Shown here: positions 1-17,793 of the stretch, piece after piece | Layout: each line of letters begins with the position of its first letter | How positions within the stretch are numbered: the first letter of the stretch is position 1 | Source of the DNA: Verrucomicrobiota bacterium | Lineage (GTDB): Bacteria; Verrucomicrobiota; Verrucomicrobiia; Limisphaerales; JADLHS01 | Length of the DNA: 17,793 bases | Direction: 5' to 3' | NCBI GenBank assembly: GCA_025457745.1 | Contig: JALOTT010000121.1 | Coordinates: 1 to 17,793 of the forward strand | Position numbers and translations under genes: made by a program | Notes under the pieces: generated by a model | Databases searched by the model: none | What the model saw: the letters and a program-made list of their open reading frames with translations, nothing else | What the model was told of the DNA's origin: nothing

Positions 1-76
1 TGTCGCCGAGTTCGATCAGCGGGTAGTTGATGACTTTTTGCAGATCCGTCCACCATTGGCTCAATGTCTCGCTCAT
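1..76 (-). CDS. 5' end (N-terminus) of a minus-strand gene running off the left edge; unknown product
   Basis: Reverse complement of 1-76 reads ATG AGC GAG ACA TTG AGC CAA TGG TGG ACG ... (MSETLSQWWTDLQKVINYPLIELGD...) with no stop before the window edge. It is divergent from the + strand protease gene. Only 25 codons are visible, so function is unknown. Confidence 0.35.
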   Translation of the reverse strand, partial: MSETLSQWWTDLQKVINYPLIELGD

Positions 77-255
77 AATTGTTACCTCGTCCGTGATTGA
101 TGCGTGCCGGGCCTCGGATAACCAAGGCTTGTTTCAAACGTCGGTTCGGTGCATAAAACCGACATGCGCAAGCATAAGAGAACCCTGAGCTTATGGGAAC
201 CCGTGACTGTGAAATGCCGGCACGGTCTGCCTTCGGCTCGCACCAATCCTGTGCT

Positions 256-1353: not shown

Positions 1354-1357
1354 AGGC

Positions 1358-2896: not shown

Positions 2897-3591
2897 AACC
2901 GAAGACCAAATCCCCGCCGGCGCCCAAACGCAAACGCATCCTCGTCGTGGACGACCATCCGCTGATGCGCGAGGGCGTGAGTCAATGGATTCAACGCGCG
3001 CCCGAATTGGAAGTCTGCGCCCAGGCGGAGTCGGCGGCCCAGGCCGTTTCCCTGGCGGAAAAACTCAAACCCGACCTCGTGCTCACCGACATTTCGTTGA
3101 TGGGCCGCAACGGTCTTGAACTCATCAAAGACCTGGGCGCGCTTCAGCCCGGCCTGCCGGTGCTTGTGCTTTCGATGCACGAGGAATCGCTTTACGCCGG
3201 GCGGGCCCTCCGCGCCGGCGCGCGCGGTTACATCATGAAACGCGCCGGCGGCGACCGCGTGGTCGAAGCCATCCGTGAAGTGTTCCAGGGCCGCATCGCT
3301 GTCAGCCCCGAAATGGCGACGCACTTGCTGGAGGAATACTCCGGGCGAAAATCGCGCTCCGGGCGCACGGCGCTGCCGAATCTCACGGACCGGGAATTTG
3401 AAATCTTTCAATTGCTCGGCGAGGCCAAGAGCAACCGGGAGATTGCCGAACAACTTCATCTCAGCCCGAAGACGGTGGAAACACATCGCATGAACCTGGC
3501 GCGCAAGCTCAAAGTCAAGAGCGCTGTCGAGTTGCTGCGCTTCGCCCTGCAATACGTCGAGAAAGAGGCCTCGGGCGACCTGGGCGGTTGA
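2893..3591 (+). CDS. NarL/FixJ-family response regulator (REC + LuxR-type HTH)
   Basis: Receiver motifs are present: ILVVDDHP, phospho-acceptor in LVLTDISLMG, VLVLSMHEE, YIMKRAG. The C-terminal LuxR HTH is LTDREFEIFQLLGEAKSNREIAEQLHLSPKTVETHRMNLARKLKV. ATG 2893 overlaps the kinase stop in an ATGA arrangement. Confidence 0.9.
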   Translation: MKPKTKSPPAPKRKRILVVDDHPLMREGVSQWIQRAPELEVCAQAESAAQAVSLAEKLKPDLVLTDISLMGRNGLELIKDLGALQPGLPVLVLSMHEESLYAGRALRAGARGYIMKRAGGDRVVEAIREVFQGRIAVSPEMATHLLEEYSGRKSRSGRTALPNLTDREFEIFQLLGEAKSNREIAEQLHLSPKTVETHRMNLARKLKVKSAVELLRFALQYVEKEASGDLGG

Positions 3592-3663
3592 CACCACGCT
3601 GGCGTTTTCCTGGTTAATCACGCGCGCTCACTTCATCGGCTAGTTTTCAGCGGTGATTTCCTC

Positions 3664-3683
3664 CGCACGTGACTCGCACGTGC
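3664..3683 (+). promoter_or_regulatory. Tandem direct repeat CGCACGTG-N3-CGCACGTG (two CACGTG palindromes 11 bp apart); candidate transcription-factor site upstream of the pseudo-receiver gene
   Basis: Sequence cgcacgtgactcgcacgtgc is read directly from the window. It lies in the 266-bp intergenic region, about 175 bp upstream of ATG 3858. Function is purely inferred. Confidence 0.3.
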
Positions 3684-3857
3684 CCTTCAGCAATTCGCTG
3701 GTATCTCTCGGCGTTTTGCTGAACCTCAACCGGAACTTCATCCCATTGTGGGCGAAAGCGCCGACGCGTTAGAGTGCGCGTGTGTATCAAGTGCATCAAC
3801 GACGCGGCAGTGGCGACCGACGGCCAGGAACGACTTCAAAACCCGTTTGGTTTGAAG

Positions 3858-4301
3858 ATGAGCAGGACGTCAAAGCGTAACGTGGCGAACGGGCGCAATG
3901 CCGTGTTTCTCGTGGACCGGCACGCGCTCATGCGGCGTGCCGCCGCCCATTGGATCAATTCGAGTTCCGGTCTGAAGGTCTGCGGCATGGCGGGCGGCGT
4001 GGCGGGCGCATTCCGAGCAGTCAAACGATTGCGCCCGGACATTGTAGTCTCGGAAATCATGCGACCACACGACCTCGGTTTCATCCGGGAGTTGCATCGG
4101 CGGCATCCGGGTCTGCCGATTCTCGTTTTTTCCATGCAAGACGCAGCGGTGTATGCGGCCAGGGCGCGGGAAGTTGGTGCCAGCGGCTATTTGATGAAAG
4201 ACGTGGGCGGAGAACAACTTGTCCACGGCATTCGCGCCATGCTGAGTCGGCGAAAGGGTCACTCCATCCGGCCTGCCCGGACTCGGCGACCGGCTGAGTG
4301 A
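3858..4301 (+). CDS. Stand-alone, output-domain-less pseudo-receiver (paralog of the adjacent NarL-type regulator; phospho-acceptor Asp replaced by Glu)
   Basis: It aligns residue-for-residue with the receiver of the 2893-3591 protein: VFLVDRHALM vs ILVVDDHPLM; PDIVVSEIMRPHDLGF vs PDLVLTDISLMGRNGL (D->E at the phosphorylation site); ILVFSMQ vs VLVLSMH; YLMKDVG vs YIMKRAG. There is no HTH. Start is ambiguous between ATG 3774 and ATG 3858; 3858 was chosen as it sits ~17 aa before the first beta-strand. Confidence 0.7.
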   Translation: MSRTSKRNVANGRNAVFLVDRHALMRRAAAHWINSSSGLKVCGMAGGVAGAFRAVKRLRPDIVVSEIMRPHDLGFIRELHRRHPGLPILVFSMQDAAVYAARAREVGASGYLMKDVGGEQLVHGIRAMLSRRKGHSIRPARTRRPAE

Positions 4302-4416
4302 ACTCAGGCAATTGCTGAAGCGCGTTGGGCGGCAGACCGATTGTGTGGAGCACAAGTGCGGGACTAGAGTGTAAATGTCGTAACTGTGAAACAGAACCAA
4401 ATCAGCGATCAACGAT

Positions 4417-4992
4417 ATGAGTGCGACGGCAATTCGAGACGAAGAGATCGGAAATTCTTTTGAAACGACCATGAAAGCAGTGATCCTCTACGACGAATTC
4501 GATCTGGCAGCGAAGGCGAATGCGCTGCTGACGCGCGCGGCCAACCGGGCAGACCCGGCTGTGCCGTGGAGCATCAACCCCTGGCGACTGGACATGCTGA
4601 TGCTGCCGCCGACTGCCGACAATGCGCTCCAAGATACGGCAGGCGCGCACCTGATAGTGTTGGCGATCCAGCGCCAAAGGGAGTTGCCGCCCTGGCTGTT
4701 CAACTGGCTGGAAAAGTGGGCCGGGTGCCGAGAGGTTCAAGACGTCGCCTTCGCCGTGTTCGATGGTGGGAACGGGGGCATGCTGTCAATGCCTGCCGCG
4801 CCCGAGTTGTCCCGCTTTGCCGAGCGACACGGCTTGTGTTTCATCTTTGGCGACGTGCATCCGGACGAAGGCAAATCGGCCGGATCTTTGGACGACCTGC
4901 ACGCGCGTGAGGTGACGCAGACGCCGACAATGGTTCACATCCTGGAGCAGACGCCCCGCCGCTACTATCAGCATTGGGGAATCAACGAGTGA
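4417..4992 (+). CDS. Hypothetical protein (no recognisable family); alternative start at ATG 4471
   Basis: It is a 191-codon ORF in the coding strand orientation of the locus (MSATAIRDEEIGNSFETTMKAVILYDEFDLAAKANALL...). The N-terminus after M19 (MKAVILYDEF) faintly resembles a flavodoxin/CheY-like beta1 strand, but there is no confident motif. No good RBS is seen for either start. Confidence 0.5.
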   Translation: MSATAIRDEEIGNSFETTMKAVILYDEFDLAAKANALLTRAANRADPAVPWSINPWRLDMLMLPPTADNALQDTAGAHLIVLAIQRQRELPPWLFNWLEKWAGCREVQDVAFAVFDGGNGGMLSMPAAPELSRFAERHGLCFIFGDVHPDEGKSAGSLDDLHAREVTQTPTMVHILEQTPRRYYQHWGINE

Positions 4993-5048
4993 GTCGCGGC
5001 GCAGTCGTGGCGCTGATTGCGATTTGAAATTCCGATGTCCGACCAAAC

Positions 5049-5387
5049 ATGAAGACAACCGTGAACAACAATGTTATTGAAGTAAACGAAGCGAACTTTC
5101 CGCGGGAAGTGCTCGGCGCGCGGAGGCCCGTGCTGGTGCAGTTTTGGGCCAGTTGGTCTGATCCGTGCAAGGCCATGACCCCCGTGCTCGAATCCGTCGC
5201 CGAACATGAGGCCACCCCGGTCAAAGTGGCCCGGGTGAACGTGGAGCATCACGAAGGGTTGGCCGAGGAATATGGCGTGCGCGCCGTGCCCACTCTGCTT
5301 ATTTTCAACCGGGGAAATCTACAGGACCAGATCATCGGGCGCGCCACCGAACAGGAAGTGCGCGAGAAATTAGAATGCTTGAAATGA
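5049..5387 (+). CDS. Thioredoxin-fold protein with non-canonical active site WSDPC (CGPC -> SDPC; nucleophilic Cys missing)
   Basis: It aligns along its whole length with classical thioredoxin: VLVQFWASWSDPCKAMTPVLESVAEH...VKVARVNVEHHEGLAEEYGVRAVPTLLIFNRGNL, compared with E. coli [27 protein letters not shown]...[30 protein letters not shown]. The cis-Pro (VPTLL) is conserved. The first Cys of CxxC is replaced by Ser. Confidence 0.8.
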   Translation: MKTTVNNNVIEVNEANFPREVLGARRPVLVQFWASWSDPCKAMTPVLESVAEHEATPVKVARVNVEHHEGLAEEYGVRAVPTLLIFNRGNLQDQIIGRATEQEVREKLECLK

Positions 5388-5630
5388 ATTTCCGAAAGCC
5401 AAATTGCGGTGGCGATGTGCGGGTGTTGAGAATCCACGCTCCAGAGCAGGACCAAACCTCATCGCCCGTCGAGATCAAGTTTAACCGCGGGCATCCGCTT
5501 GAGAACAACGAATTGCCGGCTCGGTTGAGCCGACTGCGATGCGGGCAAGAGACCCGTAAAACGGTTGCGCCCGCACCGCGACAAACCGAACTCATCAACG
5601 CATAACCATCGAAACAGAGAAAGGACCAAC

Positions 5631-5924
5631 ATGACACCACATGAAGCAAATCAACGGCTGACCGGCGATCTTAAACTGGTCATGCGCGACGCGGAGGAGT
5701 TGCTCAAGGCCACCGCGGGCGAGGCGGGCGAAAAAGTGAAGGAAGTGCGCAGCCGGCTGACGACGGCGCTAGATTCCGCCAAGGCCACGTGCGAACACCT
5801 CCAAGACAAAACCGTCGAAGCGGCCAAGGCCACGGATCACGTCATCCGCGAGCATCCCTATGAATCCATCGGCATCGCCTTTGGCGTGGGGCTGCTAATT
5901 GGCGTGCTGGTCGGACGCCGTTAA
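5631..5924 (+). CDS. DUF883 / ElaB-YqjD-family membrane-anchored stress protein
   Basis: It has an N-terminal coiled-coil and the C-terminal signature [26 protein letters not shown] (conserved HPY...GxGxLxG tail anchor of ElaB/YqjD/YgaM). Strong RBS aaagga 7 nt before ATG 5631. Confidence 0.8.
   Translation: MTPHEANQRLTGDLKLVMRDAEELLKATAGEAGEKVKEVRSRLTTALDSAKATCEHLQDKTVEAAKATDHVIREHPYESIGIAFGVGLLIGVLVGRR
5838..5912 (+). repeat. Dispersed direct repeat, copy A (tail-anchor coding segment of DUF883 gene); copy B at 9523-9597
   Basis: atccgcgagcatccctatgaatccatcggcatcgcctttggcgtggggctgctaattggcgtgctggtcgg (copy A) versus atccgcgagcatccgtatgaatccatgggcgtcgccttcggtgttgggctgctgattggtgtgctggtcat (copy B). 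About 85% nucleotide identity over ~72 nt, read directly from the sequence. Confidence 0.8.
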
Positions 5925-5928
5925 ACCC

Positions 5929-6315
5929 ATGGACGAAAGCGAAACAATCCGTCCAGGCGTGTTGGACACCTTGCGGCGGCTTGGCACCACCGTTCTAGCC
6001 ATTTTTCAGAACCGGCTGGAGTTGCTGGTGGTCGAGTTGCAGGAGGAACGCATCCGCCTTTTCAACGCGCTCTTGCTGACGGCGGCGATCGTGGCGCTGG
6101 GTTTCTTCACGCTGGCGATGGCGGCCCTCGCGCTAGTCATCGTCGTCTGGAATCAATTCGGCGTGAAAGGGCTGTTGTTGATGAGCGCGCTGGGTTTGAT
6201 CAGCACACTGCTGTCCTATTGGCGGCTGCGCGTGCGTTTGAAGAACTGGCCGCTGTTATCCGGCACGCTGGCCGAACTCAAAAAGGACCGCGAATGTTTG
6301 GAGAGCAAGAAATGA
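5929..6315 (+). CDS. YqjE-like inner-membrane protein (holin-X / Phage_holin_3_6 superfamily, DUF1469-like)
   Basis: It shows the two-TM architecture and the motif FQNRLELLVVELQEERIRLFNALLLTAAIVALGFF...ALALVIVVW, characteristic of YqjE homologs encoded immediately downstream of elaB/yqjD-type genes. It starts 5 nt after the upstream stop. Confidence 0.7.
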   Translation: MDESETIRPGVLDTLRRLGTTVLAIFQNRLELLVVELQEERIRLFNALLLTAAIVALGFFTLAMAALALVIVVWNQFGVKGLLLMSALGLISTLLSYWRLRVRLKNWPLLSGTLAELKKDRECLESKK

Positions 6316-6614
6316 CGGCACTTCAACTGCGCAAACAAACGCTGTTGCTGGAGAGCGACCTGAACCGCCTGACGCTGCACGTCGAATGTGCGCAGTTGCG
6401 CGAAGCCACGAATTGGATGGGCCAGATCAGAGGGGCGCAAAAAAGAATTCCTTCGTGGGCGCTGGCCGTGGCGCCGCTGGCGGGTGTGGCGTTGGTGCTG
6501 GGCCTGCGCCGTTCCTCGGCCGGCGCTGGACTTTTGACAAAGGCCCTGGGAGTCGCACCCTCGCTGATCCAGATTTGGCGCATGTTTTCGGCGTCATCCA
6601 ACGAACCGAAATAA
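6312..6614 (+). CDS. YqjK-like small membrane protein (third gene of yqjD-yqjE-yqjK-type triad)
   Basis: ATG 6312 overlaps the upstream stop (aATGAcg). The ~100 aa protein has an N-terminal amphipathic region (LQLRKQTLLLESDLNRLTLHVECAQLREA) and one TM (WALAVAPLAGVALVLGL). Size and position match YqjK. The assignment rests on synteny more than on motifs. Confidence 0.55.
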   Translation: MTALQLRKQTLLLESDLNRLTLHVECAQLREATNWMGQIRGAQKRIPSWALAVAPLAGVALVLGLRRSSAGAGLLTKALGVAPSLIQIWRMFSASSNEPK

Positions 6615-6664
6615 ACCTGGCTCGAAGGGCCGCACCGCCCGCGGGCCGCAACCGAAGGATAAAC

Positions 6665-6970
6665 ATGGCAAAAACCAACCATACAAACCCCGCAAAGCTC
6701 GGAACAAAGCGTGGCCGGACTCAGACGTTCTCCATCACCGCACCCACGGCGATGAGTGTACAGTTGGTGGGCGACTTCACGCATTGGACGCAGCAGCCGA
6801 TCAACATGCAAAAGAGCGCGGACGGCGTCTGGCGCACCAGTGTCGAACTTGAACCGGGCACGCACCACTACCGTTTCCTCGTGGACGGTCAGTGGCGTGA
6901 TGATCCAGAATGTGCGTTGCACGTGCCGAATCCGTACGGCAGTCAGGACGCAGTTCGGCAAGTCGCTTAA
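6665..6970 (+). CDS. Stand-alone CBM48 / AMPK-beta-type glycogen-binding domain protein (101 aa)
   Basis: It matches the AMPK beta GBD / isoamylase N-domain consensus: VQLVGDFTHWTQQPINMQKSADGVWRTSVELEPGTHHYRFLVDGQWRDDPE (W...W...L.PG.H.YKF.VDG.W..DP). RBS aagga precedes ATG 6665. The in-frame upstream extension to 6386 overlaps the previous gene and is discounted. Confidence 0.8.
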   Translation: MAKTNHTNPAKLGTKRGRTQTFSITAPTAMSVQLVGDFTHWTQQPINMQKSADGVWRTSVELEPGTHHYRFLVDGQWRDDPECALHVPNPYGSQDAVRQVA

Positions 6971-7093
6971 CCGGTTTGGCCTCCGGTCCCTGGGCGCGAT
7001 GAGTTAGGTTGTCCGGCCTGCAAGGGCCGAGGGGATGATGCGTCCTTAGCGTTGGGCAGCCAGGTTTCGGGCGCGCCACAACCGGAAAGAAAC

Positions 7094-7438
7094 ATGAAAG
7101 AAATAAAAGCGTATATCAGGCTACTCTGTGCCAGCCAGGTTATCAAAGATCTAAAGGATGCTGGCGCCAAAGACCTGACCCTGATCCGGGTGGACGCAAT
7201 CCGCCCCGTGAATTATCAAGGGCAGGCGGTGGAAGCCGAGTCTGCTAACTATGTCACGCGCTACTCGACCGTCGCCAAACTGGAATTGGTTTGCCGGGAC
7301 GAGGAAGCGAAGCTCTTCGCCGAGATCATCCGGGCCCGCGCCCACACCGGCAAGAAGGGTGATGGAAGGGTATTCGTGAGCAACGTGGAAGAGGCAGTCA
7401 ATATTCGCACGGGAGAAACCGGCGATACGGCTCTTTGA
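7094..7438 (+). CDS. Divergent PII (GlnB/GlnK)-superfamily signal-transduction protein, stand-alone
   Basis: The N-terminus MKEIKAYIRL matches PII beta1. The B-loop HTGKKGDGRVFV and the C-terminal NIRTGETG match the PII signatures TGxxGDGKIFV / IRIRTGE. The T-loop region (RPVNYQGQAVEAESANYVTRY) is longer and unlike the canonical RGQKGxxELYRGAEY. The gene has noticeably lower GC than its neighbours. No amtB/glnA neighbour is present. Confidence 0.8.
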   Translation: MKEIKAYIRLLCASQVIKDLKDAGAKDLTLIRVDAIRPVNYQGQAVEAESANYVTRYSTVAKLELVCRDEEAKLFAEIIRARAHTGKKGDGRVFVSNVEEAVNIRTGETGDTAL

Positions 7439-7689
7439 ACGAACACAGTTACGACTTTTTTCCCATGATCAGGCCGCATCGGTCTTTACCTGATGGCTCT
7501 CAGCGTTTCCCGGAAGCGGCATCCGCCCTTGGCCGATAGCGTCACGGCCGGCGCAAAGGTAACTTGAAATCGTGCGGTTTCACCAAACCGGACGAAGCTG
7601 GTGGAAGTTGTCTTGAACGAGCGCAGCCGATGAGTGATTTACGACGCGCGTGGGAACGTGATGCTCGGCCCGAAAAACACAACCTGAAA

Positions 7690-8205
7690 ATGAAAACGAA
7701 AAAACAACCAGGAACTATGGTAAACCGCGGAGAAAGAAAACGGGGAGGTGCCAAAGCCGCAACGCTGAAACTGCGCCGGATTCTCGTGCCGCTGGACTTC
7801 TCCGGCAAATCACGCCAGGCACTCGATTTCGCCGTGCCCTTGGCGAAGCAATACGGCGGAAAAGTCTTCCTGCTTCACGTGGTCGAGCCGCCTTACGTTT
7901 ATCCCTATCACCCCGGCGAGATTGGGGTTGCGGCGGTGGACCCACGACCCATTGCCGAAGCTTCCAAGAAAAAACTCTCAGCCTTGGCCCGTGAACTCGT
8001 GCCGCCGGACGTGCTCGGCAAGACGATGGTGCGCACCGGTCGCGCGTACTTGGAAATCGTTGATGCCGCCGATGAACTGGGCGCGGACCTCATTGCGTTG
8101 AGCACGCACGGTCATACCGGTCTCAAACACGTCCTCCTTGGCAGCACCGCCGAACATGTTGTGCGGCACGCGCGCCGTCCGGTGCTCACGGTGCGCCGAC
8201 ATTGA
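7690..8205 (+). CDS. Universal stress protein (UspA family, ATP-binding UspFG type) with basic N-terminal leader
   Basis: It contains RILVPLDFSGKSRQALDFAVPLAKQYGGKVFLLHVVEP. The C-terminal ATP-binding motif is ALSTHGHTGLKHVLLGSTAEHVVRHARRPVLTV (G-x2-G-x9-G-S/T). Start at ATG 7690 (MKTKKQPG...) was chosen by analogy with the paralogs' MxxKTxxx leaders, ~28 aa before RILVP; ATG 7564/7630 are possible but less likely. Confidence 0.85.
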   Translation: MKTKKQPGTMVNRGERKRGGAKAATLKLRRILVPLDFSGKSRQALDFAVPLAKQYGGKVFLLHVVEPPYVYPYHPGEIGVAAVDPRPIAEASKKKLSALARELVPPDVLGKTMVRTGRAYLEIVDAADELGADLIALSTHGHTGLKHVLLGSTAEHVVRHARRPVLTVRRH

Positions 8206-8226
8206 CCCAAATCCCAGAGACAACTC

Positions 8227-8754
8227 ATGCGGATTAAAACGACAAAATCGCAAGTTCGGAGAAAAACCGCCCGCGTTCTGCCGCGGCAGCGAATCATTGT
8301 GCCGATTGACTTTTCAAAAAACTCGCTGCGCGCGCTGGATGTGGCCGTGTCGCTGGCCGGGCAATGCGGGGGGAAAATCAATTTACTGCACGTTGTCCAG
8401 CCGCCCGCCGCATCTACCTGGTACGCCGTCCCTGGGGGAAAACACTATCTCGGTCTGACCCTTCACAACCTCGCCGACGCCGCCCGGAAGCGGCTGACGG
8501 CGATGGCATCGGAACGCCTCCCACCGCAGTTGCAGGGACAAACTCTCGTGCGGCAGGGATCGGCTTACGAACAAATCATTTCTGCGGCGCGGCGGTTGGA
8601 TGTGACTTTGATTGTCATCAGCACGCATGGCCTTACCGGCCTCAAAAGGATGCTGATCGGCAGCACCGCTGAACGCGTTGTGCGCCACGCGCACTGCCCG
8701 GTGCTCACGGTGCCGTTGACGGAGATCCAGGAGAAAAATTATGCAAACGAATAA
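8227..8754 (+). CDS. Universal stress protein (UspA family), paralog 2
   Basis: It contains ARVLPRQRIIVPIDFSKNSLRALDVAVSLAGQCGGKINLLHVVQP and ISTHGLTGLKRMLIGSTAERVVRHAHCPVLTV. It starts 21 nt after the Usp1 stop. Confidence 0.9.
   Translation: MRIKTTKSQVRRKTARVLPRQRIIVPIDFSKNSLRALDVAVSLAGQCGGKINLLHVVQPPAASTWYAVPGGKHYLGLTLHNLADAARKRLTAMASERLPPQLQGQTLVRQGSAYEQIISAARRLDVTLIVISTHGLTGLKRMLIGSTAERVVRHAHCPVLTVPLTEIQEKNYANE
8268..8370 (+). repeat. Tandem-paralog nucleotide repeat (5' region of usp paralog 2; partner at 8781-8885 in paralog 3)
   Basis: ccgcccgcgttctgccgcggcagcgaatcattgtgccgattgacttttcaaaaaactcgctgcgcgcgctggatgtggccgtg... (paralog 2) versus ccgcccgcgttctgccttggcggcgaatcctcgtgccaactgatttttcaaaaacctcgctgcgcgcgtttgatgtggccgtg... 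(paralog 3). About 85% identity over ~105 nt. The 3' ends of paralogs 1 and 2 (~8100-8195 vs ~8620-8715) are similarly conserved. Confidence 0.75.
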
Positions 8755-9256
8755 AACCGCAAGGGGACTCCCGAACAAGCCCGCCCGCGTTCTGCCTTGG
8801 CGGCGAATCCTCGTGCCAACTGATTTTTCAAAAACCTCGCTGCGCGCGTTTGATGTGGCCGTGCCGTTGGCCCGCGACTGCGGAGCGCGACTGTGCCTCC
8901 TCTCCGTCATTGAACCCGCGGCGTATGCCACGGGTCTGGAAGGATTGGTGATCGCGGTGCCGGACACTATGCTGGTCAGGGACGCCAGGGCCGGGCTGCC
9001 CAGGCTTGCACGACGATTTGTTCCGTCGGCCATACCCGTTACTTGTTGGGTAAAGCGGGGAAAAGCGTTCGATGTCATCACCGAGGTTGCGCAGCAGAAG
9101 AACATTGACCTCATCGTGCTGGCCAGTCATGGCCGCACGGGTTTTGATCGCGTTCTGATGGGCAGCACGGCGGAACGAGTTGTGCGCCATGCCCGGTGTC
9201 CCGTCTTTGTCGTGCGGGCATCCCATCCAAATCACGGAAAACAACCAAAGGACTAA
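8741..9256 (+). CDS. Universal stress protein (UspA family), paralog 3
   Basis: It contains ARVLPWRRILVPTDFSKTSLRAFDVAVPLARDCGARLCLLSVIEP and ASHGRTGFDRVLMGSTAERVVRHARCPVFVV. It overlaps Usp2 by 14 nt. The 5' ~105 nt are ~85% identical to the corresponding part of Usp2. Confidence 0.9.
   Translation: MQTNKTARGLPNKPARVLPWRRILVPTDFSKTSLRAFDVAVPLARDCGARLCLLSVIEPAAYATGLEGLVIAVPDTMLVRDARAGLPRLARRFVPSAIPVTCWVKRGKAFDVITEVAQQKNIDLIVLASHGRTGFDRVLMGSTAERVVRHARCPVFVVRASHPNHGKQPKD
8781..8885 (+). repeat. Tandem-paralog nucleotide repeat (5' region of usp paralog 3; partner at 8268-8370)
   Basis: See 8268-8370. Confidence 0.75.
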
Positions 9257-9259
9257 ACC

Positions 9260-10261
9260 ATGGAAACCTATTTTGGAGTAATCGAGCAAGCCGGAGGCAG
9301 CCTCGCCCGCGAACGGGTGTTGGCTGACCTCAAGACGCTGATCCGTGATTCTGAAAACCTGCTCAAGGTCACGTCCGCTGACGTAAGCGACAAGGCTCAG
9401 GAAGCGCGCTCCCGCGCCACCGCCGCGCTTGAACGAGCGAAAGCCATCTACTCGGAATGGCAGGATCAGGCCGTCGCGACCGCGAAAGCCACCGCCAAAA
9501 AGACGGACATAATAATCCGCGAGCATCCGTATGAATCCATGGGCGTCGCCTTCGGTGTTGGGCTGCTGATTGGTGTGCTGGTCATACGGAGCGCCCGGAA
9601 TGGGCGGGAAGCCAAAGGGCCGGGCCTGATTCTGCTCATACCGATTGTGGACCGGATCGTGAAGGTGGACTTGCGCGTGGTCACCATTGACGTGGCCAGT
9701 CAGGAGATGATGACCCGCGACAACGTGCCGGTCACCGTGGATGCCGTGGTCTATTTTCGTGTGGTGGACCCGGAGGCCGCCATCGTCAAGATCGAGAATT
9801 TCTACAAGGCGACCTCGCTCATTGCCCAAACGACCTTGCGCAGTGTTATCGGGCAGGCGGAACTGGACGAGCTGCTTTCGCACCGCGAGAAAATCAACCA
9901 ACGTCTTCAGGAGATCATAGATCGCCAGACCGATCCGTGGGGCATCAAGGTGACCTCCGTCGAGGTCAAGGATGTGTCGTTGCCCGAAACGATGAAGCGC
10001 GCGATGGCCAAACAGGCCGAAGCCGAACGCGAACGCCGCGCGAAGATCGTCAATGCCGAAGGCGAATTTCAGGCCGCCGAGAAGATGGTGCAGGCCGCCG
10101 CGTTGATCAGCACCCAACCCATCGCTCTGCAATTGCGCTTCCTGCAAACCATGCGCGAGATTTCTGGCGAGCACAACACGACCACGTTCCTGCCGCTGCC
10201 CATTGATTTGTTCACTCCCTTTCTGAAGCGCGGCACCGATGGCAGCGCGAAAGGTGCGTAA
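9260..10261 (+). CDS. Chimeric DUF883 (ElaB/YqjD-like coiled-coil + tail anchor) :: SPFH/band-7 (stomatin-like) protein
   Basis: Residues 1-108 are paralogous to the 5631-5924 protein, including [23 protein letters not shown]. From ~aa 118 onward it is a classical prokaryotic stomatin: [94 protein letters not shown]...[53 protein letters not shown]...[13 protein letters not shown]. The usual first SPFH strand (IV.EYER.VVFRLGR) is absent and replaced by the linker [10 protein letters not shown]. Starts 3 nt after the Usp3 stop. Confidence 0.85.
9523..9597 (+). repeat. Dispersed direct repeat, copy B (inside the DUF883::SPFH chimeric gene, immediately 5' of the fusion junction)
   Basis: See copy A (5838-5912). 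The repeat ends exactly where the homology with the free-standing DUF883 gene stops and stomatin-like sequence begins. Confidence 0.8.
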
Positions 10262-10926
10262 TGTCAGCAACCAAAAGAGACGCCATGAAAACCAGGAACA
10301 CCAAACGCAAACTTGCCGAAACGGCTGTGGGAATGGCAGTGGGCGGTGCCGTGGCTGGCCCCATTGGCGCCGTGGCCGGCGCTTTCGTGGCCGGCCATGT
10401 CGAAGAAGGGCTGGAACACGTCGCGAAACTCAAGCCACCGCAGGACTGGAACAAGCTTGCCGCGGATGATCCCCTGATTCATGTCTGGCCCAAGCGCATC
10501 CTCGTCCCGCTCGACTTTTCGCCGCCGTCACGGCGGGCCTTGCGCTTTGCCCGCCACTGGGCGGATTTCTTTGCCGCCAAGGTGTACCTGCTGCATGTCG
10601 TCGAGCCGACCACTGCAGTTGGCGAGTTCGGAACGGTGCCGCTGGGCGCGGTCCAGCGCGACATTTCGGGCAAGGCCAAAGCGGCCTTGGGTGAATTGGC
10701 GCGCACGGAGTTCCCAGATTCGATCCCGATCCGCATGGTCGTCCGAAAAGGAAAAGCGTACGACCAGATCGCCGCCACCGCGCGATCCATCCGCGCTGAT
10801 CTCATCATCATCGCAACGCACGGCCGTACCGGCCTGAAGCATGTGGTGCTCGGCAGCACCGCCGAGCGCGTCGCGCGCCATGCGCCGTGTCCGGTGTTGG
10901 TGTTGCGCCGCAGCGCAACTCGCTGA
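10261..10926 (+). CDS. Universal stress protein (UspA family), paralog 4, with N-terminal glycine-zipper hydrophobic segment
   Basis: The N-terminus has a basic patch followed by AVGMAVGGAVAGPIGAVAGAFVAG (repeated GxxxG/AxxxG). It then has KRILVPLDFSPPSRRALRFARHWADFFAAKVYLLHVVEP and IATHGRTGLKHVVLGSTAERVARHAPCPVLVL. ATG 10261 overlaps the upstream TAA by 1 nt (alternative ATG 10282). Confidence 0.85.
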   Translation: MSATKRDAMKTRNTKRKLAETAVGMAVGGAVAGPIGAVAGAFVAGHVEEGLEHVAKLKPPQDWNKLAADDPLIHVWPKRILVPLDFSPPSRRALRFARHWADFFAAKVYLLHVVEPTTAVGEFGTVPLGAVQRDISGKAKAALGELARTEFPDSIPIRMVVRKGKAYDQIAATARSIRADLIIIATHGRTGLKHVVLGSTAERVARHAPCPVLVLRRSATR

Positions 10927-10953
10927 AACGCTGAGGAGCTAACCAAGACAACC

Positions 10954-11424
10954 ATGAGTCAGGAATTCCAAAGTCCCAGCAAAACCGCGACAGAAACCCC
11001 GGCACCGCGGAAAACAAGACCCCGCCTCCGGTCATGGCTGCCAGTGATCGTCCTGCTCGCTGCTTTCTGCGCGGGCTTTGTTCCGATGTGGCTCAGGTCC
11101 AGCCGGCTGACGGGGGAATTGCACCGGACACAGCAGGAACTGCGACGGACGCAACTTCAGATCACGCTGGCCTGCGCGGCTCTGGACGCCCGGCGCGGCG
11201 ATTACGAAGCCGCCCGACAAGGTGCGGCCAACTTCTTCAGCCTGGTCACAGCGGAACTCGACCGCGGAATCGGATCGGCCTTGCCATTAAACGCACGAAC
11301 AGGGCTGCAGCCGCTCCTGGCGGAGCGTGACGACTTGATCACCCTGCTGGCTCGCGGCGATCCGGCGTCTGCCGAGCGGCTCGGCAACGCTTACGCCGAG
11401 TTTCGGAAGACCCTCGGCAAGTGA
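10954..11424 (+). CDS. Hypothetical single-pass membrane protein with coiled-coil region
   Basis: It has a basic N-terminus, one TM (SWLPVIVLLAAFCAGFVPMWL) and a helical/charged remainder (TGELHRTQQELRRTQLQITLACAALDARRGDYEAARQ). No family was recognised. It is in the strand orientation of the locus with a short 27-nt gap to the upstream gene. Confidence 0.5.
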   Translation: MSQEFQSPSKTATETPAPRKTRPRLRSWLPVIVLLAAFCAGFVPMWLRSSRLTGELHRTQQELRRTQLQITLACAALDARRGDYEAARQGAANFFSLVTAELDRGIGSALPLNARTGLQPLLAERDDLITLLARGDPASAERLGNAYAEFRKTLGK

Positions 11425-11463
11425 ACATCTCATGGTCAGCCAACGGCACTTCACATCACCTAG

Positions 11464-12855
11464 ATGAAAATCACACTCCACGGCGCGGCGGGTGAAGTCA
11501 CCGGCTCGGCCTATCTGTTGGAAACCGCCCGCGCGCGGGTGCTCGTGGATTTCGGCATGTTCCAAGGCGGAGGGAATACCGATGCGAAAAACGTTCTGCC
11601 CTTGGGACTCGATCCCAAGCGGCTCGATGCAGTGTTGCTGACCCACGCGCACCTCGACCACTGCGGGCGACTGCCGTTGCTGACCAAAGCCGGCTATCAA
11701 GGCGGCATTTACGCCACTGGTGCCACGCGTGACCTGGCCGGATTGATTCTGCGCGATTCAGCGAAAGTCCAGTCCTACGACGTTGAACGCAAGAATCGCA
11801 AGCGTGAGCGGGCCGGGAAGCCTCTGCTCGAACCGCTCTACAACGCCAACGAAGTTGACCAGACGATGTCACGCTTTCGGGATGTCGAGTTTGACCGGTC
11901 CTTCCAGGTCGGCGAGGGCATCACGGCGCGTTACACCATTGCCGGACACATGCTCGGCTCGGCCAGCATCAAACTCACCGTCCAGGAAAAAGGGAAAACG
12001 AGGATTGTCGTTTTCTCCGGCGACATCGGCCCAATGCATCTGGCGATCATCCGGGGCGCCGTGCCGTTCAAACATGCGGACCTCGTGTTCATGGAATCCA
12101 CCTACGGCGACCGGGACAACAAGCCGTTGAAAGAAACGCTCGCCGAGTTTCGCGGCATCATCCAGGACGCGGTGAAACGCCGGGCGCGCATTCTTGTCCC
12201 CGCGTTTGCGGTCGGGCGCACGCAGCAGATTCTGTATCATTTGGATGAACTGTTCTGCGCCAGCAAGCTCAAGCCGTTCCCGGTCTTTCTCGACAGCCCG
12301 ATGGCGATTGAAGCGACGAACATTTACCGCCGTCACCCGGACTTGTTCGACGACGAAGCCAAGGCGTGGCGTCGCGGCTGTGCCCTCACCCGAAAACAAG
12401 CGCATGTGAAACCCACGCCCACCGCGCAGGATTCCATGAAGCTCAACGACGTTTCCGGCCCGTGCCTCATCATGGCCGGTTCGGGCATGTGCACCGCCGG
12501 TCGCATCCTTCACCATTTCAAGCACGGCCTGTGGCAGCCCGACACCGTCGTGATGATCGTCGGCTATCAGGGCGAAGGCACGCTGGGTCGCCAACTCGTG
12601 GACGGCGCGAAATCCGTAAAAATCTTCGGCGAGAAAATCGCGGTCAAGGCGCACATCCACACGTTGAACGGCTTCAGTGCCCACGCCGGCCAGAGCGCAC
12701 TGATGAACTGGTTCGGCAGCCTCGCGCCGTCCAAACCCAAAGTGGTCCTCACTCACGGTGAAGCGCGCGGGCGCGAACCGCTGGCCGAACTCATCCGCAA
12801 GCGGCATGGACTCAAGCCGATTCTGCCAGCGCAGGGAGATGTCATCAAGCTGTGA
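11464..12855 (+). CDS. Beta-CASP family metallo-beta-lactamase-fold ribonuclease (RNA-metabolising MBL, CPSF73/RNase J-like)
   Basis: The N-terminus MKITLHGAAGEVTGSAYLLETARARVLVDFGMFQG and the motif-2 LLTHAHLDHCGRLP (HxHxDH) are present. Downstream D/H motifs (FSGDIG, FMESTYGD, HTLNGFSAHAG, VLTHGE) follow the beta-CASP order (motifs A, B, C). Length is 463 aa. Confidence 0.85.
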   Translation: MKITLHGAAGEVTGSAYLLETARARVLVDFGMFQGGGNTDAKNVLPLGLDPKRLDAVLLTHAHLDHCGRLPLLTKAGYQGGIYATGATRDLAGLILRDSAKVQSYDVERKNRKRERAGKPLLEPLYNANEVDQTMSRFRDVEFDRSFQVGEGITARYTIAGHMLGSASIKLTVQEKGKTRIVVFSGDIGPMHLAIIRGAVPFKHADLVFMESTYGDRDNKPLKETLAEFRGIIQDAVKRRARILVPAFAVGRTQQILYHLDELFCASKLKPFPVFLDSPMAIEATNIYRRHPDLFDDEAKAWRRGCALTRKQAHVKPTPTAQDSMKLNDVSGPCLIMAGSGMCTAGRILHHFKHGLWQPDTVVMIVGYQGEGTLGRQLVDGAKSVKIFGEKIAVKAHIHTLNGFSAHAGQSALMNWFGSLAPSKPKVVLTHGEARGREPLAELIRKRHGLKPILPAQGDVIKL

Positions 12856-14300
12856 AGCCAGGAATCCCATCCCGTTTTGCTTTCGACGTGGCCGTTGTCG
12901 GCGGCGGCAGTGCCGGTTTTGCCGCGGCGCGGACGGCGTCGGCCGCGGGGCTGCGCACCGTTGTGATCGAGGGCGGGCGCGAGTTGGGTGGTTTATGTAT
13001 TTTGCGCGGCTGCATGCCGAGCAAGGCGCTGCTCTGGGCGGCGGAAGTGCGCCACCTCGCGCAGCGCGCTGAGGTTTGGGGCATGAAGCCGAAGTCCATC
13101 CCCTTTCGATGGGAAAGAGTCATGGCGCGCAAAGAATCCATGATCCGCGATTTTGCCGCCTATCGCCAACGGCAACTCACCGGGAGCAAGTTCGCGCTCA
13201 TCCGCGCCCGCGCCACGTTTCAAAATCCCCACACCCTCGACCTCGGCAACGGGCGAACGCTGACGGCCCGGCATTTTGTTTTGGCCACCGGCTCGGTCGT
13301 TTCGCCTCCGCCGCTGCCTCAACTCCATAACGCGGGATTCATCACGAGCGACGAAGCAGTCACTCTGCGCCGATTGCCCAAATCACTCCTGGTGCTCGGC
13401 GGCGGCAGCGTGGCCGTGGAACTCGCCCAGCTCTTCGCGCGCTTCGACGTGGCGGTGACATTGATTCAGCGCAGCGACCACATCTTGCGCGGCTGCGATG
13501 CCGACGCCGCCGAGGCGCTCGAAACCGCGCTGCGCCGCGACGGCGTCCAGTTGTTCACCGGCACGAAACTGCTCGACGCGCGGCGGAAAGGACGGAAGAA
13601 AGTCGTGGAGTTTCAACACGCCGGAAAACGGAGGCGTGTCGCCGCTGAGGAAATCCTTCTCGCGCTGGGTCGTAGCCCCAACACGGCCTCGTTGAATCTG
13701 GATTTGGCCGGAGTGAAGACGGACGGCGGACGAATCGTGACCGATGAACAAATGCGCACGACAGCGCCGCACATCTACGCGGCGGGTGATTGCACCAGTC
13801 TGCACGAGGTGGTTCACGTGGCTATTCAGCAGGGAGAAACCGCGGCGCAAAACATCATCAACTCGCAGCAGCCGCGCGTCATGGATTGCCGGCTGCTGAC
13901 GCAGGTCGTGTTCACCGAACCGCAAATCGCCACCGTGGGCCTGACGGAAAAACAAGCCAAGGCCGCCGGCCAACGCGTCCTCGTTGCCCGCTATCCGTTC
14001 AACGACCACGGCAAATCCCTCATCATGGACGCGACGGATGGCTTCGTAAAACTGCTGGCGCATCCCGCCACAGGCGAAATCCTCGGCGGCGCGTGCGTTG
14101 GCCCGCTTGGCGGCGAACTCATCCACGAAATCGTGGCCGCGATGCACAGCCGCATGACCGTGCGCGAACTCGCCGTCATGCCGCACTACCATCCGACGTT
14201 GGCGGAAATCTGGACCTACCCTGCCGAGGAACTCGCGGAACAACTTCCTCACCGAAGAGTTTCATCGGCGAAAGCTGTTCGTCCCAATCCAAACCGGTAG
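12852..14300 (+). CDS. Class I FAD-dependent pyridine nucleotide-disulfide oxidoreductase (LpdA/MerA/glutathione-reductase family)
   Basis: The FAD dinucleotide fold FDVAVVGGGSAGFAAA is present. The redox-active disulfide is GGLCILRGCMPSK (CxxxxC; cf. GGTCLNVGCIPSK). The NAD(P) fold is LLVLGGGSVAVELAQLFARFDV. The C-terminal dimerisation/His-Glu pair is HYHPTLAEIW. It begins with GTG 12852, which overlaps the RNase stop (GTGA). No E1/E2 or mer genes are nearby, so the physiological substrate is unknown. Confidence 0.85.
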   Translation: MKPGIPSRFAFDVAVVGGGSAGFAAARTASAAGLRTVVIEGGRELGGLCILRGCMPSKALLWAAEVRHLAQRAEVWGMKPKSIPFRWERVMARKESMIRDFAAYRQRQLTGSKFALIRARATFQNPHTLDLGNGRTLTARHFVLATGSVVSPPPLPQLHNAGFITSDEAVTLRRLPKSLLVLGGGSVAVELAQLFARFDVAVTLIQRSDHILRGCDADAAEALETALRRDGVQLFTGTKLLDARRKGRKKVVEFQHAGKRRRVAAEEILLALGRSPNTASLNLDLAGVKTDGGRIVTDEQMRTTAPHIYAAGDCTSLHEVVHVAIQQGETAAQNIINSQQPRVMDCRLLTQVVFTEPQIATVGLTEKQAKAAGQRVLVARYPFNDHGKSLIMDATDGFVKLLAHPATGEILGGACVGPLGGELIHEIVAAMHSRMTVRELAVMPHYHPTLAEIWTYPAEELAEQLPHRRVSSAKAVRPNPNR

Positions 14301-14309
14301 AATCAAGTT

Positions 14310-14516
14310 ATGAAAGATCGCGTCTATAAACACATCGAACTCACCGGCACGTCCACGACCAGCATTGAGGACGCCGTGAATACGGCGCTCAAACGTGCGG
14401 GCAAAACCATCAAGAATCTGCGCTGGTTTCAAATCGTCGAAACGCGCGGCGACATTGACAAGAACCGCGTCGCCCACTGGCAGGTCACTTTGAAAGTCGG
14501 ATTCACCGTCGAATGA
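14310..14516 (+). CDS. Dodecin (small flavin-binding/storage protein)
   Basis: This 68-aa protein reads [68 protein letters not shown]. It matches the dodecin consensus (V/YK.IE..GTS......A...A...A..T...L.WFEV...RG....G.V..YQV...VGF.LE), including the flavin-stacking Trp. Confidence 0.85.
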
Positions 14517-14526
14517 AAGGAACGCC

Positions 14527-14814
14527 ATGAACCAGCCGCAACCGTCCCGCGAAACCATCGCCGAACGCGCCTATCATCTATGGGAACAGGCGGGCAAACC
14601 TTCCGGACGCGATGAAGAATTCTGGCTGCGCGCGGAGGCGGAATTGTCTGCGCCCGCGAGCGCAGTCGGTGTGCCACCCGTGATTGCACCCCCGGCCGCG
14701 CTTTTGCCAACGCCGCCGGTATTGCCGGTTCACCAGGTCCCGCCGCTTATCAAGGCCACCGTCAAATCGCCGGACCTCCGACCGCCGCCCCGCCGCCGGC
14801 CGAAACGCGCTTGA
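14527..14814 (+). CDS. DUF2934-domain protein with proline-rich C-terminal tail
   Basis: The N-terminal ETIAERAYHLWEQAGKPSGRDEEFWLRAEAEL matches the DUF2934 signature (I..RAY.LWE..G.P.G.D...W..AE.EL). The remainder is Pro-rich and low-complexity (PPVIAPPAALLPTPPVLPVHQVPP...RPPPRRRPKRA). Confidence 0.65.
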   Translation: MNQPQPSRETIAERAYHLWEQAGKPSGRDEEFWLRAEAELSAPASAVGVPPVIAPPAALLPTPPVLPVHQVPPLIKATVKSPDLRPPPRRRPKRA

Positions 14815-14862
14815 CCCTTCAACACGCCCAGGAAAAGAACGCGACACAGAAAGGAGTTTGTT

Positions 14863-15369
14863 ATGCGAAAATTCATCAATGGATTGATTGTCGGATTGAT
14901 CTTGGGCGTGGGCGGCTACTGGTTTTTCAGCCGGGCCAACCAGCCCCGCGCCGTTCAGCAAGCGCAACAGCGGTTGCGAGCAGTGGCCGCTGACACTCTC
15001 GCGAGCGCGGGACAGACCGCCGCTCAATTGGAGGAGATGCTCAAACCCAAGCTGGAAGCACTGGAATTGCAGGCCAGCACGGTCAAAGAGGAACTCGAAC
15101 AGACAGGCAAAGTGGTTCGCCGAAAGGCGCGCGACGCCGGCGCAGTTGTCGCCGATGCCGCCGCCGAGGCGCAGATCACGGCTGTCATCAAGGCCAAGTT
15201 GGCCGCCGACTCGGAACTCTCCGCTTGGAACATCGCGGTCAACACGACCGGTAGCGTGGTAACGCTTTCCGGGACGGTGTCGTCAGCGGATTTGATTGGC
15301 CGCGCCGTGCTGCTTGCGCTCGAAACCAAGGGTGTGACGCAAGTCGTTTCCACCTTGCAGGTCAAATGA
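14863..15369 (+). CDS. BON-domain protein (OsmY-like) with N-terminal membrane anchor
   Basis: RBS aaaggag precedes ATG 14863. The N-terminal TM is FINGLIVGLILGVGGYWFF. The C-terminal BON domain is ITAVIKAKLAADSELSAWNIAVNTTGSVVTLSGTVSSADLIGRAVLLALETKGVTQVVSTLQV. Confidence 0.8.
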   Translation: MRKFINGLIVGLILGVGGYWFFSRANQPRAVQQAQQRLRAVAADTLASAGQTAAQLEEMLKPKLEALELQASTVKEELEQTGKVVRRKARDAGAVVADAAAEAQITAVIKAKLAADSELSAWNIAVNTTGSVVTLSGTVSSADLIGRAVLLALETKGVTQVVSTLQVK

Positions 15370-15456
15370 TTGCATGAGCGGTTTTCCGACGTGACGAGCG
15401 AAGATAACGAACGCAAAGAACACTGCCGATCCAGCATTAGAAAACAGCCATTAGTC

Positions 15457-15672
15457 ATGAAAGAATTCACATTCAATTGTCCCACCTGTGGCCAGCCCAT
15501 TTTCGCGAAGCAAGACTGGGCCGGGCGCCGTATGAACTGTCCATCCTGCAGTAATCGCATAACCATTCCCGCCTCAGCAAGGGCGTCGAAGAAGAAAGCG
15601 CGGATCACGTCCATCAAAAAGACTGGTCTGAAGCCTCCTGGCGGCACAAAGCGTCTTCTGGGTTTCCCTTGA
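15457..15672 (+). CDS. Small zinc-ribbon protein (CPxCG...CPxC) with basic C-terminal tail
   Basis: It reads MKEFTFNCPTCGQPIFAKQDWAGRRMNCPSCSNRITIPASARASKKKARITSIKK... and contains two CxxC pairs 17 residues apart. The start is taken at internal ATG 15457 of the 15370-15672 ORF, because the upstream 29 codons directly abut the BON-gene stop and lack signal. Moderate confidence that it is expressed. Confidence 0.5.
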   Translation: MKEFTFNCPTCGQPIFAKQDWAGRRMNCPSCSNRITIPASARASKKKARITSIKKTGLKPPGGTKRLLGFP

Positions 15673-15719
15673 GAACACCGGGGCCCAACCGGCCAGCAAA
15701 AGTTTAATTGCTTTGAATT

Positions 15720-16742
15720 ATGAAAACACAAGAAATGGAAACGACCGCCCAGGCGCTCGTGGCGCCGGGAAAAGGCATTCTGGCAGCGGACGAAAGTTCG
15801 CCAACCATCGAGAAACGGTTCAAAACCATTCAGGTCGAGTCAACTGAAGAGAACCGGCGCGATTACCGGGCGGCGTTGTTTTCGACGCCCGGTCTGGGCG
15901 AGTTCATCAGCGGCGTCATTCTGTTTGACGAAACCATCCGGCAGAAGGCCGGTGATGGCACGCCGCTGGTGAAACTGCTCCGGCGGCAAGGCATCATTCC
16001 CGGCATCAAAGTGGACAAGGGTGCTAAGGCGCTGGCGCAGTTTCCCGGCGAAAAGATTACTGAAGGTCTTGATGGTTTGCGCGACCGTCTGGCGGAATAC
16101 GTCCAACTCGGCGCGCAGTTCACCAAGTGGCGCGCAGTCATCACCATCGGCGAGAACATTCCGACGCTGACGTGTCTGCAAGCCAATGCCCACGCGCTGG
16201 CCCGCTTCGCCGCTTTGAGCCAGGAGGCGGGACTCGTCCCCATCGTCGAACCTGAAGTGCTCATGGACGGCGACCACACCCTCGCCCGCTGTGCGGAGGT
16301 CACGGCCGCCGCACTGGAGGCTTTGTTCACGGCCCTGTTTGAGCATCGGGTCACATTTGAAGCCATGCTGCTCAAGCCGAACATGATTGTGTCGGGAAAG
16401 GCCTGTTCGCAACCGGCCGGCCCGGCGGAAGTGGCCGAAGCGACCCTGCGATGCTTTCGCCGCGTGGTGCCCGCAACCGTGCCCGGCTGCGTCTTTCTCT
16501 CCGGTGGCCAGAGCGATGTGGAAGCTACACGCAATCTCGACGCTCTCAACCAGCAGGCCAGCGCGCCCTGGCAACTAAGCTTTTCTTTTGGCCGTGCGCT
16601 GCAAGCGCCCGCGCTGAAAGCCTGGGCCGGCAAACCGGAGAATGTCAAGGCAGCGCAGCACGTGCTCCTTCATCGTGCCCGTTGCAACGGCGCGGCGCGC
16701 TTCGGCAAGTATTCCGCCGAGTTGGAAACACGCACGACTTAG
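15720..16742 (+). CDS. fba: Fructose-bisphosphate aldolase, class I
   Basis: It matches the class I FBA signatures along its full length: GKGILAADESSPTIEKRF, ENRRDYRAALFSTPGL, ISGVILFDETIRQKA, GIIPGIKVDKG, the Schiff-base region LEAMLLKPNMIVSG, and the C-terminal FSFGRALQ. Alternative start at ATG 15735. Confidence 0.9.
   Translation: MKTQEMETTAQALVAPGKGILAADESSPTIEKRFKTIQVESTEENRRDYRAALFSTPGLGEFISGVILFDETIRQKAGDGTPLVKLLRRQGIIPGIKVDKGAKALAQFPGEKITEGLDGLRDRLAEYVQLGAQFTKWRAVITIGENIPTLTCLQANAHALARFAALSQEAGLVPIVEPEVLMDGDHTLARCAEVTAAALEALFTALFEHRVTFEAMLLKPNMIVSGKACSQPAGPAEVAEATLRCFRRVVPATVPGCVFLSGGQSDVEATRNLDALNQQASAPWQLSFSFGRALQAPALKAWAGKPENVKAAQHVLLHRARCNGAARFGKYSAELETRTT

Positions 16743-17793
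<1,051 letters not shown>

Follow-up and report, generated by a model that had tools for sequence, protein, structure and literature searches.

Slipins such as QmcA (YbbK) of Escherichia coli and PH1511 of Pyrococcus combine an N-terminal membrane anchor with an SPFH core, a coiled coil and a C-terminal motif. The SPFH domain is cytoplasmic in QmcA and periplasmic in HflK and HflC. Members of the DUF883 family, to which YqjD, ElaB and YgaM belong, are tail-anchored, bind the 50S ribosomal subunit near the tunnel exit through their N-terminus, and require dimerisation mediated by their helix; that the N-terminus binds and inactivates this subunit is known for the E. coli proteins only. Engineered versions of QmcA and HflC with swapped transmembrane helices kept their localisation when the orientation of the helix was preserved (PMC10434171). 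Here we describe a gene in which the slipin and DUF883 families meet. It lies on a stretch of 17,793 nucleotides from a Verrucomicrobiota bacterium of the order Limisphaerales (GenBank assembly GCA_025457745.1, contig JALOTT010000121.1, positions 1 to 17,793 of the forward strand), referred to below as the window. The evidence supports a chimeric nature of the encoded protein, with a YqjD/ElaB-family protein joined to a slipin whose native anchor and first SPFH strand have been replaced.

The gene is an uninterrupted open reading frame of 333 residues (9260-10261, + strand) with the domain order DUF883, DUF883_C glycine-zipper helix and Band_7/SPFH. The Pfam matches lie above the respective gathering scores: DUF883 at residues 18-62 (E value 9.9e-10, 38.6 bits versus 25.4), DUF883_C at residues 82-108 (E value 5.6e-9, 35.9 bits versus 27) and Band_7 at residues 109-269 (E value 2.3e-36, 125.9 bits versus 23.6). 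The last of these covers only positions 12-175 of the 176-position profile. The sole strongly hydrophobic segment of the protein is the glycine-zipper helix at residues 94-109 (9539-9586, + strand), with a Kyte-Doolittle maximum of 2.43 at residues 93-109. A preliminary description of the window had proposed a stomatin carrying a DUF883 coiled coil and anchor in place of its transmembrane segment and first SPFH strand, and this architecture is borne out by the Pfam matches and by comparison with 82 related slipins.

Codons 1-117 (9260-9610, + strand) amount to a complete 117-residue DUF883 protein minus its stop codon, as judged from Pfam, homologue alignment and synteny. Hundreds of free-standing DUF883 proteins were matched when residues 1-125 served as the query, and residues 1-117 are 61-71% identical to free-standing DUF883 proteins of 111-121 residues. 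In the alignment, the 117-residue homologues stop exactly at the residue where the fusion changes to slipin. The C-terminus of homologue P0121 reads ...GVLVIRSNRPKEQ before the stop codon, and its tail IRSNRPKEQ, like the terminal TRGNQPGGE of P0125 and APSHRQERE of P0176, aligns with RSARNGRE of the fusion (9587-9610, + strand). What had been described as a short linker between the two halves does not exist as such; RSARNGRE is the natural C-terminal tail of this DUF883 subfamily. Likewise, the proposal that the first ~108 residues are paralogous to the product of the DUF883 gene at 5631-5924 holds in that both have the DUF883 and DUF883_C domains, but the extent was too short, the DUF883 part being a complete gene of 117 residues.

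The features that define the donor helix have persisted in the fusion. The conserved proline ahead of the helix and the glycine zipper are kept, with invariant P, G, F, G and G aligning across 13 homologues. The free-standing relatives end 2-10 residues past the helix, whereas 224 residues follow it here, so the fusion is not a C-tail-anchored protein. It also scores far below the cut-off of the ElaB equivalog model NF007709 of NCBIfam (38.7 bits versus 139). Relative to orthologues, the 93 codons upstream of M94 have a ratio of nonsynonymous to synonymous substitution rates (dN/dS) of about 0.25 and still look selected on this measure.

Both DUF883 genes of the window are old paralogues, each with its own orthologues in conserved positions. 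Four related loci (L004-L007) have the order DUF883 (97 residues), holin-X-like gene, a gene of ~100 residues, CBM48, Usp, Usp and DUF883 (117 residues), the same as the window from 5631 to 9610, and in L004-L009, as in the window, 3 nt separate a Usp stop codon from the start of the 117-residue gene. Judged by sequence and gene order, the fused DUF883 gene is thus the resident orthologue of a distinct 117-residue subfamily at its ancestral position. On a comparison of motif identities, we rejected the idea that gene conversion or a recent duplication relates the window's two DUF883 genes.

The slipin moiety (9611-10261, + strand) runs from codon 44 of a normal slipin to the stop codon, beginning with AKGPGL and including the SPFH core, the coiled coil and the C-terminal tail. 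Codons 1-43, which encode the anchor helix and first SPFH strand, are absent. The nearest orthologue, found at loci L001 and L002, shares 93% DNA identity and 96-97% protein identity over the common part and has a normal N-terminus (MPTELKFLQTLLPWVVTVVVLAGVALPQMIRILREYERGVVFRLGKLLR/AKGPGL). The anchor and the first strand, IRILREYERGVIFRLGKLL, are present in all 82 related slipin loci and missing from the fusion; in 82 of 82 the strand follows the form ...IRILREYERGVIFRLGKLLx/AKGPG nearly letter for letter. Past the junction, the fusion aligns with the Pyrococcus stomatin core 3bk6 through residue 306 (E value 3.7e-64) and with full-length stomatin cryo-electron microscopy chains through residue 319, and it also matches the cryo-electron microscopy chains of human stomatin and of QmcA. 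Behind the SPFH core, the fusion retains the coiled coil and the C-terminal oligomerisation region, which is near-invariant in the alignment. Scores against the hflK and hflC models are well under their cut-offs (67.3 bits versus 159.4 and 40.6 versus 134.4), so that the protein does not fall within the HflK/HflC equivalogs.

Compared with L001, the slipin part has a dN/dS of 0.03-0.05, with 3 amino-acid changes in 205 codons. Either the fusion is very young or the SPFH half is still under selection. The synonymous divergence (dS) of the slipin segment from L001 is 0.30 (9611-10240 versus L001 2370-3000), versus 0.84-1.38 for neighbouring shared genes, and nucleotide identity between the window and L001 is 87-100% within the slipin and ~70-75% directly past it. 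Two readings fit these values: codon choice in the slipin segment is strongly constrained, or lineages recently exchanged the segment. A further peculiarity concerns alignment: fusion residues 84-105 (9509-9574) resemble by chance the slipin first strand, ILREY---ERGVIFRLGKLL, and this likeness causes MAFFT and BLASTP to align the two, misplacing sequences in mixed alignments and inflating the coverage of slipin matches.

Nucleotide homology to three slipin loci starts sharply at 9611, codon A118, placing the breakpoint between GAA (E117) and GCC (A118) at 9610/9611 on the + strand, in agreement with the junction alignment. The join sits exactly at the expected DUF883 stop codon; lost with that codon are slipin codons 1-43 and whatever intergenic DNA there was. 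No homology or repeat was detected at the breakpoint (...GGGCGGGAA/GCCAAAGGG...) by junction alignment or repeat scan, and the parental types share nothing there. We regard it as probable that this is a real, lineage-specific fusion, generated by one frame-preserving illegitimate-recombination or deletion event and expressed as a single polypeptide from 9260. Such an event would have joined the last sense codon of an intact DUF883 gene to slipin codon 44, removing the DUF883 stop codon, whatever lay between the two genes and the first 43 slipin codons while keeping the frame. The 72-nt similarity to the other DUF883 gene would have played no role.

The setting of the slipin gene is also unusual. 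An NfeD-like gene adjoins the slipin in 61 other loci. The slipin clade formed by the window and L001/L002 lacks this nfeD partner and is found among Usp genes, and only L001/L002 share with the window the order of slipin followed by Gly-rich Usp gene. That Usp gene follows the slipin in L001 and an intact DUF883 gene in L008/L009, where it begins 4 nt after the DUF883 stop codon. In L001, and also in L002, the Usp gene upstream of the slipin (L001 1840-2238) is truncated after ~114 residues, 42 nt before the slipin ATG, which is a second, independent rearrangement breakpoint 5' of the slipin in this clade. The two rearrangements may stem from separate insertions, or from deletions in an ancestral arrangement of Usp, DUF883, other genes, slipin and Usp; none of the relatives shows the intermediate.

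We looked for DUF883-Band_7 fusions as an already common and annotated architecture, using word-indexed searches over 5.8 billion protein clusters and HMMER over 1.84 billion representatives, and no other case was found; nor did a second fusion, or the two genes side by side, turn up in 82 slipin loci and about 86 DUF883 loci. All 120 homologues listed in the slipin search have Band_7 only, and all 120 listed in the DUF883 search have DUF883 only. None of 80 slipin loci drawn from metagenomes has a DUF883 gene within 3 kb, and none of 80 DUF883 loci taken from GTDB species genomes has a slipin within 4 kb. The best 150 of the 20,762 matches in the HMMER scan cover the query only from residue 90 at the earliest, mostly from residues 107-118. 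A protein search centred on the junction returned Band_7 fragments only among the matches listed; the contig's own 240-residue product is not among them, so this search is non-exhaustive. Two proteins, P0345 and P0245, were possible analogues by length and proved to be ordinary slipins with long, unrelated N-terminal extensions.

Some other slipins with odd N-termini were seen, each a singleton. P0001 (366 residues) has an internal duplication, and in P0243 and P0259 the anchor and first strand are swapped for unrelated sequence just before (A/P)KGPGL. Frameshifts, miscalls or genuine variation may account for these three, and they show how often metagenome gene calls are disturbed in the junction region of slipins.

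How the join arose, and whether it exists in the genome at all, can be weighed against this background. According to the preliminary description, homologous recombination through a 72-nt repeat shared with the free-standing DUF883 gene made the chimera, with 9523-9597 about 85% identical to 5838-5912 and the homology stopping at the fusion point. A direct repeat does exist, 95 nt long and 79% identical between the two genes, and a core of 66 nt reaches 88% (the DUF883 C-terminal motif at 9494-9588, + strand, and its partner at 5823-5917; repeat family D3). However, the partner coordinates had been some 14 nt out of register, and the similarity ends at 9588, 22 nt ahead of 9610/9611. Any two of the DUF883 genes compared, from the same or different genomes, have an identity of 0.77-0.89 over the 66-nt motif, and the fused copy is as near to the L004 genes (0.88) as to its own paralogue (0.88). 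The slipin has no copy of the motif, and the fused DUF883 gene is an old resident in its ancestral place. On these comparisons, the repeat is a conserved motif of the DUF883 family, not a scar of recombination, and an origin through it is scarcely credible. An artefact of assembly or sequencing, either a chimera of two strains or a collapsed segment, would mean that the true genome has separate DUF883 and slipin genes. The join is unique in all data searched, it comes from a metagenome-assembled contig, and P0243, P0259 and P0001 illustrate how slipin N-termini can go astray in such data. Against this, graph assemblers need shared k-mers, and there are none where DUF883 homology ends with GGGCGGGAA and slipin homology begins with GCCAAAGGG; with no repeat at the join, a chimera made by the assembler is unlikely. 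The join also keeps the frame and falls exactly between two codons, it leaves no step in GC content, and the flanking genes are members of one conserved cluster with similar divergence from L001 (dS of 0.84 for the downstream Usp gene and 0.96-1.38 for upstream cluster genes). The flat GC content and the comparable divergence of the flanks rule out a splice of two genomes. We therefore consider an artefact unlikely and the junction quite probably real DNA.

Given a real junction, the product could still be other than the full-length protein. The NCBI annotation of the contig gives only a 240-residue 'slipin family protein' (P0002) that starts at M94, in which case the upstream 93 codons would be untranslated or a decaying DUF883 remnant and the slipin would carry a borrowed helix. 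Such a product would have the usual slipin layout of a short N-terminus, hydrophobic helix, positive charges and SPFH domain. Yet there is no stop codon or frameshift from 9260 to 9539, and the codons in question match DUF883 with an E value of 9.9e-10, are 61-71% identical to orthologues and have a dN/dS of about 0.25. Nothing resembling a Shine-Dalgarno sequence precedes 9539 in the DNA. At 9260, an AAGGA (9248-9252, + strand) lies 7 nt upstream of the ATG, within the conserved layout of Usp stop codon, 3 nt and ATG, and ribosomes initiating there must read through. Translation thus most likely starts at 9260 and yields a single 333-residue product, while the shorter reading seems very unlikely to us. 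At the other extreme, DUF883-SPFH could be an established, selected architecture that has simply escaped annotation. Both halves are under purifying selection relative to their relatives, and both families are stress-related membrane proteins found here inside a cluster of stress genes. However, no search produced a second example, and the closest slipin orthologue, that of L001/L002 with 96-97% protein identity, has a normal N-terminus. This would make an established architecture extremely improbable, and the gene is a one-off domain combination of two well-known families, a curiosity and not a new protein family or system.

If the fusion is translated as a single polypeptide from 9260, as we favour, its working may be considered in terms of its parts. 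The YqjD-like N-terminal domain would stay in the cytoplasm, where its family relatives have theirs, bind the 50S subunit and dimerise through the glycine-zipper helix. The DUF883 helix, now internal, would be the sole membrane anchor of the SPFH part. Should this helix keep the orientation of its family, with the N-terminus inside and the C-terminus outside, it would push the SPFH domain and coiled coil into the periplasm, as in HflK/HflC and opposite to QmcA. A working chimera that couples a ribosome-hibernation factor to an SPFH scaffold could take the form of a multimeric slipin ring with many YqjD-like ribosome-binding arms at the membrane, or of an inside-out periplasmic slipin resembling HflK/C. 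We consider such a working chimera quite unlikely.

Several observations weigh against a genuine, functional fusion. It is a singleton on a metagenome-assembled contig, and the public annotation recognises only the 240 residues from M94. A simple deletion between adjacent genes is undocumented among relatives, as DUF883 lies beside a slipin in none of the 80 slipin and 80 DUF883 loci. The lost strand, IRILREYERGVIFRLGKLL, is near-invariant among relatives, and in the human stomatin cage the equivalent SPFH1 region contacts the membrane and neighbouring subunits; for these reasons, the product may be crippled by its loss. Counter to this, crystallised SPFH cores begin further in, at query residue 129 in Pyrococcus stomatin (3bk6) and 128 in mouse stomatin (4fvf), so the core fold as such can do without the lost strand. 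The low dN/dS of the slipin part fits a functional and a very recent fusion alike. With +3/-3 in front of the helix and +4/-1 behind it, the flanking charges conflict with N-in/C-out export of the SPFH part, since a net charge of +3 just after the helix disfavours efficient export. The SPFH part is nearly as likely to be cytoplasmic or mis-inserted as periplasmic. AlphaFold models of the fusion were unusably poor, with predicted local distance difference test scores (pLDDT) of 54.8 from an input of 41 DUF883 and 16 slipin sequences and 52.7 from 118 slipins; mixed alignments with more slipins placed DUF883 sequences wrongly onto the slipin coiled coil.

Comparison with the described systems brings out what is distinctive in the fusion. 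Residues 118-333 are like slipins in the SPFH core, coiled coil and C-terminal motif, but the N-terminal anchor, IRILREYERGVIFRLGKLL and an adjacent nfeD gene are missing, and the anchor in use is borrowed from another family with the opposite native orientation. Residues 1-117 are like YqjD, ElaB and YgaM in their DUF883 domains, in the proline and glycine zipper and in gene position, but the tail anchor has been lost, and the fused copy lacks the yqjE and yqjK neighbours that the paralogue at 5631 possesses. If the DUF883 helix keeps its orientation, the predicted layout is that of HflK/HflC, with a cytoplasmic N-terminus, one helix and an SPFH domain on the far side; by sequence, however, the fusion is a slipin. 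As in the engineered QmcA and HflC proteins (PMC10434171), a foreign helix takes the place of the native SPFH anchor. Unlike those constructs, the fusion also loses the first strand, gains a 93-residue cytoplasmic domain and draws its helix from a donor in which it is natively reversed.

Upstream of the fusion, a Usp gene (8741-9256, + strand; Pfam Usp E value 1.7e-34) has its stop codon at 9254-9256, 3 nt before the ATG at 9260, and the two genes probably share a transcript; in L004-L009, the DUF883 gene is likewise preceded by orthologous Usp genes. The downstream Usp gene (10261-10926, + strand; Pfam Usp E value 6e-32) has a Gly/Ala-rich, hydrophobic N-terminus (AVGMAVGGAVAGPIGAVAGAFVAG), and its ATG overlaps the stop codon of the fusion (TAATG). 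In all, four Usp paralogues are present in the window (7564-9256 and 10261-10926), three in tandem before the fusion and one after it. An open reading frame of 480 residues on the opposite strand (8828-10270, - strand) covers the entire fusion gene; the open frame is its sole support, and the 60% GC content is the probable cause.

Farther upstream, the free-standing 97-residue DUF883 paralogue (5631-5924, + strand; Pfam DUF883 and DUF883_C) is the first gene of a trio (5631-6614) that resembles yqjD-yqjE-yqjK of E. coli. The second gene matches Phage_holin_3_6 in Pfam and is YqjE-like. The third encodes a 131-residue membrane protein (6219-6614) with no Pfam match to YqjK, and its yqjK-like label is by position alone. 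Synteny of yqjE and yqjK with yqjD has been described (bioRxiv 10.1101/2024.08.16.608256). The block is conserved in many verrucomicrobial loci, usually followed by CBM48 and Usp genes. Between it and the Usp genes of the window are a small CBM48/AMPK-beta-like glycogen-binding protein (6665-6970) and a P-II-like protein (7094-7438).

The wider surroundings include a PAS histidine kinase, LuxR-type and stand-alone response regulators, a thioredoxin, a beta-CASP RNase, a disulphide oxidoreductase and a BON-domain protein. The set of genes around the fusion looks like a stress or dormancy island. A gene for a 156-residue membrane protein (10954-11424) lies downstream of the fusion in the window and precedes the Usp genes in L001, L146 and L148; because it changes sides between loci, gene order in the cluster is fluid. 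Eight GTDB genome records with the DUF883/Usp cluster of verrucomicrobial type are titled 'uncultured Bifidobacterium/Bifidobacteriaceae' (L091, L094, L107, L118, L123, L154, L157 and L167), and these titles look mislabelled.

The gene is an example of a fusion concealed by annotation. In the public record there is only a 240-residue slipin and, because the NCBI call begins at M94, the fusion is missing from protein databases. Provided that the junction is genuine and its product is expressed, the gene offers a natural test of whether an SPFH/stomatin domain lacking its own anchor and near-invariant first strand still folds and assembles, and of how such a domain fares on a helix of opposite orientation. 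It would likewise test whether a ribosome-hibernation factor with a tail anchor can accommodate a large passenger at its C-terminus. Were either the coupling of the two activities or the inside-out arrangement to prove true, this lineage would have carried out a natural experiment on the topology of SPFH proteins and the dispensability of their first strand.

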